This document shows positions 2,837 to 21,694 of a stretch of DNA of 64,000 nt, piece by piece (position 1 is the stretch's first letter; each line of letters starts with the position of its first letter). A model generated the notes under the pieces. That model saw only the letters and a program-made list of their open reading frames with translations. It ran no database searches and was not told the DNA's origin. Source of the DNA: a virus (taxonomy: Duplodnaviria; Heunggongvirae; Uroviricota; Caudoviricetes); the IMG/VR virus record IMGVR_UViG_2579778660_000001. The stretch is one strand, 5' to 3'. The position numbers and the translations under genes were made by a program.

Positions 2837-3204
2837 AAAATCCCTATGACAAATCTATGTCGAATAACAGAGTGAGTAAAGGATCGAACTATGATTTTTT
2901 TGTCATCAACTTTAGAAAACCAACCGTTGAAACCACACTTCGCAAATTAAAGACCATGAAGGCAACGTGTTACTGTCCATCATCAATCTATGATGGATTA
3001 CAAAAAAAATCGGCATTTTATAACTTTAAATAATGGGGATTATTTAAAGTTAGGCTATAATCATGTGTAGATGAACAGTATTGACATCACTGAAAATACG
3101 TGCCTCGAATCAAAGGCTTGTATTTTGAAAATTAACTTATAGCTACCCTGTCATTTTTATATTTTTCGCGTAGCGTCATATGTATATAGAGGCGAAATAG
3201 TTTC

Positions 3205-20190: not shown

Positions 20191-20808
20191 TTGATCAACC
20201 ATAGCGGCTATGTAGACAAACCGGGTATTTCTATGAAGCAAAGCTATTGGGAGAAACAGACACAAAAAGCCCTGCAAAAACTGGCTGATCCGAAATGGCG
20301 GGAGGAACAAAGGGCAAAGCGTCTTCAGCAAGCTCAACGCCAGCAGCAGCGTGCGCGAGAAAAAGCCGCATCGCCTGAATATCGGCAAAAGAAAATTGAA
20401 AAAGCGAAGCAATATGAACAGCGAAGAAAAGAGAAGGCCGCTTCTGCTCCTGTCAAAAAAACTCGCGCGTCACGCGGCCTGAAAGGCAGAACACTCACAG
20501 CAGATGAGCGCCGGATACAAACTGCCATCGGTGCTCTCCCCTGCATTGCCTGCCATATGCACGGACAGCATAGCCCTGTGGTATCCCTGCACCACATCTT
20601 CGGAAGAACAGCAGAGAACGCGCATAAATACGTCCTCCCTTTGTGTAAATGGCACCATCAACACGCAGCGCCAGCAGAGATCCGCGAGCAATACCCCTGG
20701 TTGGTTCCTGTTCATGCTGATGGAAAAATAGGCGGTAAAGCAGATTTCAGGCGGCACAATGCTGATGAAATGACGTTGTATCAGATGGCGATTGAATTGA
20801 CGAATTAG
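20191..20808 (+). CDS. ref: Ref-like HNH endonuclease (recombination enhancement function)
   Basis: Basic low-complexity N-terminus then Cys/His HNH core (CIACHMHGQHSP...LCKWHHQH); likely ATG at 20233. Confidence 0.65.
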   Translation: MINHSGYVDKPGISMKQSYWEKQTQKALQKLADPKWREEQRAKRLQQAQRQQQRAREKAASPEYRQKKIEKAKQYEQRRKEKAASAPVKKTRASRGLKGRTLTADERRIQTAIGALPCIACHMHGQHSPVVSLHHIFGRTAENAHKYVLPLCKWHHQHAAPAEIREQYPWLVPVHADGKIGGKADFRRHNADEMTLYQMAIELTN

Positions 20809-20819
20809 TTTTCTAACAT
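20805..20819. promoter_or_regulatory. operator-like motif TTAGTTTTCTAACAT (copy 5)
   Basis: Identical 15-mer to copy 1; overlaps ref stop codon. Confidence 0.55.
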
Positions 20820-20822
20820 TTT

Positions 20823-21139
20823 AAGTTGAATTATAAATTTCTCCGATGTACATTCACTACCGATTGGCACACCGGTCAACTTTTTGAGACAAACTGTATA
20901 GTTTTTCGTATTATTGCCGCCGCCATACCTATGGCGGTGCAATATAGGTGGCTGAAAAGCCCCCGTTGACTCACGGTGTTCCAGCCTTTATTGCGCCGCC
21001 ACCAGACCGTGGAACAGTCGATGGCGGCTCCGAAAGCAAGGAGTCACTACACTATGAACAGCTACTGTCTTTTCCCGTCACTCGTTGTCCGCCACTCACG
21101 CGATAATCTGCATTCTTTACTCGCGCTGGGGGTGTCAAA
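20823..21139 (+). ncRNA. candidate structured regulatory RNA region (antisense-type), speculative
   Basis: No ORF; paired hairpins CCGCCATacctATGGCGG and GCCGCCA-N19-TGGCGGC with shared 7-nt words; follows an operator. Confidence 0.2.
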
Positions 21140-21307
21140 ATGACCGTTCGCTACCTCAACTTTCAAATCCAGAACATCACTGGCGGTTGCTATGACTGGT
21201 TTGTCACTCTCGGAAAAGAAGTGATCACCGGGAAGCTGGATGAAGTGAAAGCTAAAGCAATGGCCTACGCCTGCAAGCAAGCCCGGAAGAAATCCGCCAA
21301 AGCATAA
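21140..21307 (+). CDS. small protein (55 aa), candidate
   Basis: ATG after GGGGG; MTVRYLNFQIQNITGGCYDWFVTLGKEVITGKLDEVKAKAMAYACKQARKKSAKA. Confidence 0.3.
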   Translation: MTVRYLNFQIQNITGGCYDWFVTLGKEVITGKLDEVKAKAMAYACKQARKKSAKA

Positions 21308-21694
21308 AATACTGACTTTTGCGCCCTGGCATTATCGTGGGGTATATTTCTACGGCACCTTAGAAAAACGGGTGCCGGGATTGGAACCTCACGCGGTAGC
21401 TCCTTAACTTAGTCAAAGGAGGCTGCCAATATCGCTACTATCCCCACCCCAACTCATTCTGAATTTATCTGGCGTTTCTATTCCTGCCAAAAACACCTGT
21501 ATATCTGCGTCATGGCTGCAACCGAAGCAGAAGCTCGTTCATACCTTCCCCTGGCGGAACGGGGCGTAATTGGTGATAAACAGATACTGGGAAACAGTGG
21601 AACTACATGAGGCGGGAGTAATTCGTGACCTGATGGAGAATTCCGTTCCCCGCCGCTATCGTGCAGGGAACGGCATCTCCGTGGTTAAAGGTGT

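Follow-up and report, generated by a model that had tools for sequence, protein, structure and literature searches.

Between the gene ref and a gene of 55 codons, orf55, the phage-plasmid sequence IMGVR_UViG_2579778660_000001 (Caudoviricetes) carries a structured region in which we recognise a probable antisense RNA related to the C4 RNA of phages P1 and P7. The window, that is, the whole stretch of 64,000 nucleotides that was analysed and to which all positions refer, is a D6-like Escherichia coli phage-plasmid, and an earlier note made from its sequence had flagged positions 20,823 to 21,307 as a possible antisense-RNA immunity circuit. Over the flagged region, plasmid p1_035148 (NZ_CP029365, 89 kb) is 99.4% identical and Escherichia phage D6 92.5% identical. 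The relatives, non-mobilizable plasmids of about 77-97 kb from Escherichia, Salmonella and Shigella, are D6-like phage-plasmids and cousins of P1; they are designated by L numbers where they have to be told apart. The features of the locus, all on the plus strand, are the following.

20191/20233-20808, plus strand: ref, open reading frame (ORF)
20809..20819, plus strand: operator word TTTTCTAACAT of a D6-type (C1-like) repressor, directly after the ref stop codon and adjoining a -35 box
20826-31 and 20849-54, plus strand: candidate promoter P-op, -35 TTGAAT, 17-nt spacer, -10 TACATT, read from the sequence
20862..20880, plus strand: putative upstream site a1''/b1'', GATTGGCACACC plus GGTCAAC, as the complement of b''-a'' in the RNA
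20886..20914, plus strand: candidate promoter P2, -35 GAGACA, 17-nt spacer, -10 TATTAT (from 20909), from a promoter scan
about 20912-20944, plus strand: hairpin A, formed by the C4 5' arm with TTATTGCCGCCGCCAT, which nearly duplicates the C4 3' arm
20927..21006, plus strand: putative C4-like antisense RNA gene, from the full RF01695 model, the isolated fold and conservation
G20933-A21004, plus strand: predicted mature RNA, 72 nt
20932-20948 with 20985-21001, plus strand: outer stem of the C4-like RNA in the minimum free energy (MFE) fold
20949-20960, plus strand: hairpin 1 of the C4-like RNA, MFE fold
20963-20976, plus strand: hairpin 2 of the C4-like RNA, MFE fold, with loop UGACUC, called b''
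20975-86, plus strand: single strand a'' of the C4-like RNA, GGUGUUCCAGCC, MFE fold
20990-21060: hairpin-B-type segment (in other units, L002 2971-3045, L004 3940-4012, L043 3370-3445 and L049 8425-8500)
20995-21028, plus strand: hairpin B, formed by GCCGCCA (C4 3' arm) with TGGCGGC further downstream, its loop holding the complement of a''
21010-16, plus strand: putative target site a2'', UGGAACA, in the loop of hairpin B, complementary to the single strand UGUUCCA (a'')
21028..21046, plus strand: Shine-Dalgarno (SD) hairpin CUCC(N8)GGAG with putative target site b2'', GAGUCA (21041-46), complementary to the loop UGACUC
21054 (ATG) to 21143 (TGA), plus strand: leader ORF of 29 codons, MNSYCLFPSLVVRHSRDNLHSLLALGVSK, from its conserved frame, SD and ATG
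21140..21307, plus strand: orf55, 55 aa, PHROG 7786

The segment 20927-21006 is probably a diverged, unannotated paralogue of the P1/P7 C4 antisense RNA. In a covariance scan, the C4 family model of Rfam (RF01695) matches it over the full length of the model and on the plus strand with 40.2 bits, under the curated gathering score of 45 bits; the E-value is 3.5e-6 when 651 nt are searched, 6.4e-5 in 12 kb and 3.4e-4 in the whole 64-kb window. A scan of the whole window at the gathering threshold returned no family, and other RNA families were set aside, as at E-values up to 5 only C4 and chance-level matches appeared, C4 being the single family that hit the flagged region. The copies in relatives score 37.7-40.2 bits. 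Folded in isolation, the 80-mer has an MFE of -36.2 kcal/mol (z-score -4.6) and reproduces the architecture of the C4 family, in which two small hairpins and a single strand lie within a long outer stem. The stem ends at C21000 and is followed by an A-CCA 3' tail, which reads G-CCA in L003 and likewise in the canonical C4 copy of L004; Hartmann and colleagues reportedly described in 1995 how RNase P makes use of such an NCCA end, a tRNA-like feature, in P1 C4. The earlier note had proposed to fold the region and look for covariation across related elements. In the C4 fold, 99% of the cells are paired across eight variants, and at four pairs the variation is confined to one side and preserves pairing (UG/CG, AU/GU, UA/UG); the double compensatory changes that covariation calls for did not appear in it. 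At the one outer-stem position that is unpaired in the MFE structure, the window has T.T, L005 has T.G and L007 has C-G, in an alignment read by eye.

Conservation singles out the same segment. Relative to L005, L006 and L007, identity is 54-63% in the leader, 89-94% in the RNA and 78-82% in the target region that follows it; among the non-coding pieces of D6-like plasmids, the putative RNA is the best conserved. Position by position, the conserved islands are the operator with the -35 box, GAGACAAA, a TAnnAT box, the whole RNA, CCGTGGAACAG, GCAAGGAGTCAC and the ATG of the leader ORF. The gene order of two diverged relatives is especially informative. In L005 (E. fergusonii) and L006 (S. dysenteriae), ref is followed by the C4-like RNA, an intact 61-aa Icd-like gene and orf55. 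This Icd-like gene, as annotated in RefSeq, starts at the same AAGGAGTCAC...ATGAA as the leader ORF of the window, whose SD and ATG align with its start; the window and D6 thus hold the 29-codon ORF where these two elements hold an icd-type first gene. Neither a canonical unit nor any other C4 is present at their ref-orf55 locus, and the C4-like RNA is there the only nearby candidate regulator of a cell-division inhibitor. L007 has the layout of the window, with 79% identity.

The earlier note had described about 320 bp after the operator as free of ORFs. This is true of most of the region, whereas its last 90 bp hold the leader ORF (21054-21143), the frame of which is kept in the 79%-identical L007: the L007 version differs by in-frame indels and has 31 aa; it likewise ends in GVSK*, and its stop overlaps the start of orf55 in ATGA as in the window. 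Upstream of it, a coding reading of 20823-21053 was rejected, the 47-, 52- and 55-aa mechanical ORFs (with TTG or GTG starts) being unannotated in RefSeq. The D6 annotation has a longer, 40-aa version of the leader ORF (orf86) from ATG 21021, which contains the 29-aa ORF and matches no NCBIfam (including the Icd-like NF033153), Pfam or PHROG family; this ATG is absent in L005 and L006, and only the 29-codon ORF from 21054 was kept. Within the leader ORF, CCGCCACTCACG (21089-21100) joins, in the same sense, CCGCCAC of the 3' arm and ACTCACG of hairpin 2, maybe by chance.

The earlier note also rested on two related GC-rich hairpins and on short words reused between a loop and an upstream segment. 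Both hairpins are present. Hairpin A folds with -19.5 kcal/mol (z-score -4.2), has 91% of its cells paired in the eight variants and shows one double change, CG to UA, in L007. Hairpin B folds with -17.5 kcal/mol, with a z-score of just -1.5 in a 71-nt context, and has 95-100% of its cells paired. They are related through direct repeats, namely GCCGCCGCCATACC at 20916 and GCCGCCACCAGACC at 20995, ATGGCGG at 20931 and 21021, and TTATTGC, which occurs twice. Each hairpin consists of one arm of the C4 outer stem and an external near-copy of the other arm. What the note had not seen is that the dominant fold is the C4-type structure of 80 nt at 20927-21006, which takes one arm from each hairpin. 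As for the reused words, they are real as complementary pairs: TGGCACACCG (20865-74) is inverted with respect to CGGTGTTCCA (20974-83), and TGTTCCA (20977-83) with respect to TGGAACA (21010-16), each of these alone being an event in the tail of about 1%.

These pairs place putative target sites on both sides of the RNA. Downstream, the b2'' word GAGUCA overlaps the AAGGAG ribosome site (at 21038-46) of the leader ORF, and its 6-bp duplex with the b'' loop has -9.0 kcal/mol, again in a tail of about 1%; the ribosome-site word AAGGAGTCAC is invariant in all variants in alignments read by eye. Upstream, the a1''/b1'' site is an inverted repeat of 10 nt at 90%; its two parts form duplexes of -12.3 and -9.1 kcal/mol, and the joint site one of -21.1 kcal/mol (0.5% tail). 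In L005-L007, the a1'' part keeps its complementarity, as read by eye from the alignment, and the b1'' part does not. With a 26-nt query, RNAduplex gives -21 kcal/mol for both flanking sites, which corresponds to a 0.5% tail and to 0.84 such sites per kb, and this long-window complementarity is suggestive rather than decisive. The joint chance of finding a-then-b sites on both sides of the RNA is, roughly, 5e-4 in one test and 7e-3 in another. The sites are in the correct order and spacing, with 6-10 bp, -9 to -12 kcal/mol and about a 1% tail each, and without covariation between loops and targets. The strongest argument for targeting is the shared design of the module, not the energy of the duplexes. 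In the units of RCS47 (L002), L004, L043 and L049, too, the 3' arm of C4 pairs with its complement further downstream and a2 sits in the loop, with stem sequences that differ between the units, and a CUCC..GGAG hairpin on the SD follows in RCS47, L004 and the window. A further complementarity, between TTTTGAGAC in the leader and the ribosome region of orf55, was treated as chance because it is not conserved in L005 and L007 (alignment read by eye).

The operator copy reported after ref in the earlier note is indeed there, at 20809-20819. Allowing for up to one mismatch, the window has 10 copies of the word TTTTCTAACAT, spread over it (2826, 12041, 15254, 20157, 20178, 20809, 22751, 26246, 30639 and 41255), where 1.8 are expected, and no shuffle reached 10; flanks shared among the sites support the operator word as real. 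The copy at 20809-20819 is invariant in all relatives, the diverged L005-L007 and L043 included, and would be bound by the C1-like repressor of D6. The words at 20157-67 (minus strand) and 20178-88 (plus strand) form an inverted pair, a palindrome just 5' of ref.

Two candidate promoters lie between this operator and the RNA. P-op, with a predicted start near 20861, would be the promoter under operator control: its hexamers and spacing recur despite a diverged spacer in L043 (TTGATA/17/TACATT) and L005 (TTGATC/17/TAAATT), and it was not among the promoters reported by a consensus scan. P2 would be a second promoter, with a predicted start near 20921, about 12 nt upstream of the 5' end of the mature RNA; in L005-L007, GAGACAAA is invariant and the -10 box keeps the form TAnnAT (TATGAT, TATCAT, TAATAT) at a spacing of 17, whereas the spacer has diverged. 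The two starts give different predicted folds. In a transcript from 20861, the MFE structure pairs the upstream site with b''a'', which is consistent with a role of this site as a cis antagonist. For a start near 20921, the C4 fold is predicted, and leader and trailer pair with each other.

The suggestion of the earlier note that an antisense RNA with cis and trans targets acts here, as in P1 immI, thus draws support from the RF01695 match, the C4 fold, the Icd-like gene of L005 and L006, and the immI neighbourhood described below. We consider it likely that the C4-like RNA, together with its flanks, makes up a complete control unit of the immI type in front of two tiny genes. The argument is carried by sequence, fold, conservation and synteny, and the remaining mechanism is drawn by analogy with P1. 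Transcription would start at the operator-linked promoter and probably also at the second promoter just 5' of the RNA, and read-through from ref is possible. The RNA would fold, as predicted in silico, into a long acceptor-like stem around two small hairpins and a single strand, with an A-CCA end, and RNase P, if it acts as on P1 C4, would cut 5' of G20933 and leave an RNA of about 72 nt. Its b'' loop UGACUC would then pair with GAGUCA on the AAGGAG ribosome site, and its a'' strand UGUUCCA with UGGAACA in the loop of the downstream hairpin. Translation of the leader ORF would be blocked, and orf55, coupled to it by ATGA, would be silenced by loss of coupling and Rho polarity, like icd and ant in P1. 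In long transcripts, the upstream site at 20862-80 may pair with the antisense loops and antagonise them in cis.

Several observations weigh against this reading. The match falls short of the curated RF01695 score. No pair of the C4 fold has changed on both sides, and shuffle controls are uninformative because only eight close variants exist; in L007, moreover, a G-to-A change breaks one pair of the C4 stem and is compensated in the alternative hairpin A. The duplexes between loops and targets are short (6-7 bp) and have -9 to -12 kcal/mol, versus -13 to -15 kcal/mol in the canonical unit of L004. Covariation between a'' and b'' and the sites a2'' and b2'' is not seen in the variants compared, where the b'' loop and a2''/b2'' are constant and the single G/A change, in a'', is not matched in a target. 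The MFE structure of the transcript from 20861 (-72.3 kcal/mol, versus -68.1 with the C4 fold) does not contain the C4 fold. Finally, in L043 (a more distant D6-like metagenomic contig, 2880-3180) operator and promoter stand directly before a homologue of orf55 (61% identical, GTG start), and so orf55 is not strictly dependent on C4-like control; neither a C4-like RNA nor a leader ORF is present at orf55 of this contig, where a canonical isrK/C4 unit (80 bits) follows. The low score, the weak complementarities, the lack of the RNA in L043, its degraded copy in L008 and the replacement of the icd-like gene by a 29-codon ORF in D6-type plasmids would all fit an inert relic, a decaying immI duplicate between ref and orf55 whose fold has survived through recent divergence and which plays no regulatory role in D6-type plasmids. 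Such a relic would hardly be expected to remain much better conserved than the adjacent leader, to change in ways that preserve pairing, to persist in lineages that lost the neighbouring canonical C4 module, to stand as the only C4 before the intact Icd-like gene of L005 and L006, and to keep promoter hexamers 5' of it across a diverged spacer; we regard it as very unlikely.

The repeated arm words invite another explanation, to which we give little credence, in which no trans-acting RNA is made and the GCCGCCA(T/C)/ATGGCGG words toggle the leader in cis between hairpins A and B and the long stem, gating termination or ribosome access. Four mutually complementary words are present, the alternative structures are close in energy (-72.3, -71.1 and -68.1 kcal/mol in the long transcript, -53.6 versus -48.0 in the short one), hairpins A and B remain 91-100% paired across variants, and the only double compensatory change sits in hairpin A. 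Yet the central part fits the C4 model, NCCA tail included, no intrinsic terminator follows either hairpin, and the hairpin-B design recurs in canonical C4 modules; the C4 of P1 acts as a processed, trans-acting RNA. A trans-acting RNA could still be aimed elsewhere, at the icd-like-orf55 operon of incoming or co-resident phages of the L005/L006 type, with the element's own ORFs as secondary targets, and the neighbouring canonical a/b site may be a further target. L005 shares a'', b'', a2'' and b2'' unchanged with the window type, which would allow this, as would the energy of a'' with the canonical or hybrid a site GATTGGAACC (-10.5 kcal/mol, versus -10.0 with its own a2''), and the heteroimmunity of P1 and P7 has been ascribed to differences in immI (PMC6906374). 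That immunity in trans is the main role seems improbable to us nonetheless, with b'' pairing poorly with the canonical b2 (-5.9 kcal/mol) and with the local target, the leader ORF and the coupling to orf55 all conserved in cis.

The 55-aa ORF of the earlier note proved to be a real gene. It belongs to PHROG 7786 (E 2e-43), a family without assigned function, and its 10 synonymous versus 2 non-synonymous codon differences, found against L005 and again against L007, indicate that it is under purifying selection. Its relatives fall into 16 protein clusters, and among the contigs that encode them the large assembled ones have lengths of about 80-94 kb. An AlphaFold2 model (predicted local distance difference test score, pLDDT, 82) has four strands and a helix and matched nothing significantly in PDB or BFVD; the sequence fell into no family of Pfam or NCBIfam, a profile search of PDB was empty, and comparison with P1-type Coi showed no similarity. 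In L044 and L045 (3001-4861), an IS200/IS605 insertion element (TnpB and Y1 transposase) at the 3' end of orf55 gives a 62-aa variant with an altered C-terminus. In position, orf55 corresponds to the payload gene ant of P1. A bolder proposal can be made, which we judge doubtful: the locus would be a third independent C4-type switch, with a new 55-aa effector as payload in place of Icd or Ant and a primary transcript that is itself a promoter-dependent conformational switch. The effector, restricted to D6-like phage-plasmid contigs, might be an antirepressor of minimal size or an early protein aimed at the host. The switch would reside in the duplicated arm words (GCCGCCA / ATGGCGG): long transcripts from the operator promoter would sequester their own antisense loops through the upstream site, and the payload would be expressed; short transcripts from a constitutive promoter would take the active C4 form, and the payload would be off.

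The surroundings of the C4-like unit are those of an immunity region. In D6 and most relatives, a canonical unit lies about 450 bp further downstream, with an a1b1/isrK-like part and its terminator, a C4 of 76-77 bits, icd and a Rha-type ant; because this a1b1/isrK-C4-icd-ant module lies immediately downstream, the locus is the immI neighbourhood of the phage. In the window, the module has decayed to a remnant.

L001 5196-6630 and L004 3744-4947, same strand as the C4-like unit: canonical ref-proximal immI module
21319..21433, plus strand: canonical immI remnant, with promoter-like TTGCGC/18/TATATT and the first isrK-like hairpin
21379-88, plus strand: remnant hybrid a1/a2 site GATTGGAACC, from alignment with L004 and D6
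within 21319..21433, plus strand: remnant b2 and SD, AGTCAAAGGAGG, from alignment with L004 and D6

Compared with L004 and D6, an exact deletion of 189 bp between the 10-bp a1 and a2 repeats GATTGGAACC has removed the isrK-like terminator and the canonical C4. The start of icd has changed from ATG to ATC at 21431-33, where RefSeq has an icd pseudogene; the remnant still matches NF033153 (E 1e-8), and the C-terminus of icd and the Rha-type ant are replaced from about 21551 (decayed unit 21357-21610). The same deletion junction is found in L003, L012, L050 and L051, and since these plasmids come from China and Thailand it is an inherited state. Two Rfam models recognise the a1b1 part of canonical modules, with cutoffs of 50 bits for isrK (RF01394) and 46.7 bits for c4-a1b1 (RF03163): isrK gives 59-69.4 bits in D6, L004, RCS47 and L043 and 46.5 in L049, and c4-a1b1 gives 21.7-53 bits, only L049 (53) being above the cutoff. 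In the window, isrK has a single match, a truncated remnant at 21355-21405 with 14.5 bits, and the leader at 20800-20926 has no match to either model at E-values up to 10. A further, complete unit lies after repL, beyond the window, in the nearest relative, at L049 5625-9627 (NZ_CP029365 31524-35526), with an a1b1 part of 53 bits, a C4 of 69.6 bits, icd_2 and a Rha-family gene; it has a third loop specificity, and an IS200/IS605-type TnpB gene is inserted between repL and the unit. Because the C4-like, canonical and repL-side units coexist in this group, D6-like elements can carry three C4-type units with three different loops.

The C4-like RNA has escaped annotation in the D6 record, in the RefSeq records examined and in the gene table of pYU39_89, the published annotation of which lists isrK, the canonical c4 and a further c4-icd_2-kilA after repL, and nothing between ref and the 55-aa ORF. 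Searches for diverged copies, made as distant searches of phages and plasmids, among viral contigs with orf55 or with the Icd-like protein of L005 and by a pattern scan of genome contigs, found only D6-like plasmids, as did a metagenome scan with an orf55 profile and a search of 5.8 billion proteins. The D6-like plasmids found carry about eight distinct variants of the RNA, too few for rigorous covariation statistics. A single species-representative genome contig has the exact C4-like core (L048, CAZPIR010000724.1, 1621 bp); its binning to a metagenome-assembled genome of an uncultured Anaerolineaceae looks like an artefact, the contig then being a fragment of an enterobacterial plasmid. A weak C4-like copy lies upstream of the canonical unit in D6 and in all relatives that carry that unit, and the RNA is kept without the canonical C4 module in the window and in L003, L007, L044-46, L050 and L051. 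The C4-like unit is kept more widely than the neighbouring c4-icd-ant, which points to a conserved role for the 55-aa protein. In our preferred interpretation, a third C4-type RNA unit is added to D6-like phage-plasmids, a group common in the plasmidomes of E. coli, Salmonella and Shigella, and the curated threshold of Rfam misses a diverged C4-like paralogue; the known principle of C4 control is unchanged by it. The locus also offers a natural deletion of c4 between a1/a2 target repeats, useful for studying how immI decays.

The closest known system is the C4 RNA and immI operon (c4-icd-ant1/2) of P1 and P7. Its a'/b' sites, the processing by RNase P and the Rho polarity were reportedly worked out by Citron and Schuster in 1990 and 1992, Biere and colleagues in 1992 and Hartmann and colleagues in 1995. 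The likeness includes the full covariance match, the long outer stem, the two inner hairpins and the single-stranded a', the NCCA 3' tail, the position of the RNA within the leader of the operon that it is predicted to target, complementary sites (putative in the window) on both sides, of which the downstream b site falls on the first ORF's ribosome site, the overlap of that ORF with the payload gene and a repressor operator at the (here predicted) operon promoter; in P1, C1 represses the c4-icd-ant operon and C4 is required for full repression of ant (PMC8198154). Unlike its P1/P7 counterpart, the RNA of the window scores below the family threshold, its hairpin-2 loop has 6 nt instead of 12, and its loop-target duplexes are shorter and weaker; the first ORF has 29 codons (L005 and L006 have an Icd-like one of 61 aa), a 55-aa protein takes the place of the Ant antirepressor as payload, and the unit adjoins ref, not pacB or repL. 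The canonical D6-like module is on the same strand and shares the hairpin-B and SD-hairpin design and the a-site core UGGAAC, but its loop sequences, and hence its specificity, are different, the C4-like unit has no intrinsic terminator, and in the window the canonical unit is deleted whereas the C4-like unit is retained. The IsrK model (Salmonella Gifsy-1, RF01394) recognises the same part of canonical units as c4-a1b1 and leaves the leader at 20855-20926 unmatched. The CI RNA of satellite phage P4 is processed from the leader of its own operon, has targets flanking its own gene and works by premature transcription termination; no P4-type sequence came up in the analysis, in which no search was aimed at one. 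The C4-like unit resembles it in combining a small leader RNA with complementary sequences on both sides of its own gene, and differs from it in family model, in targets and in its predicted mode of action.

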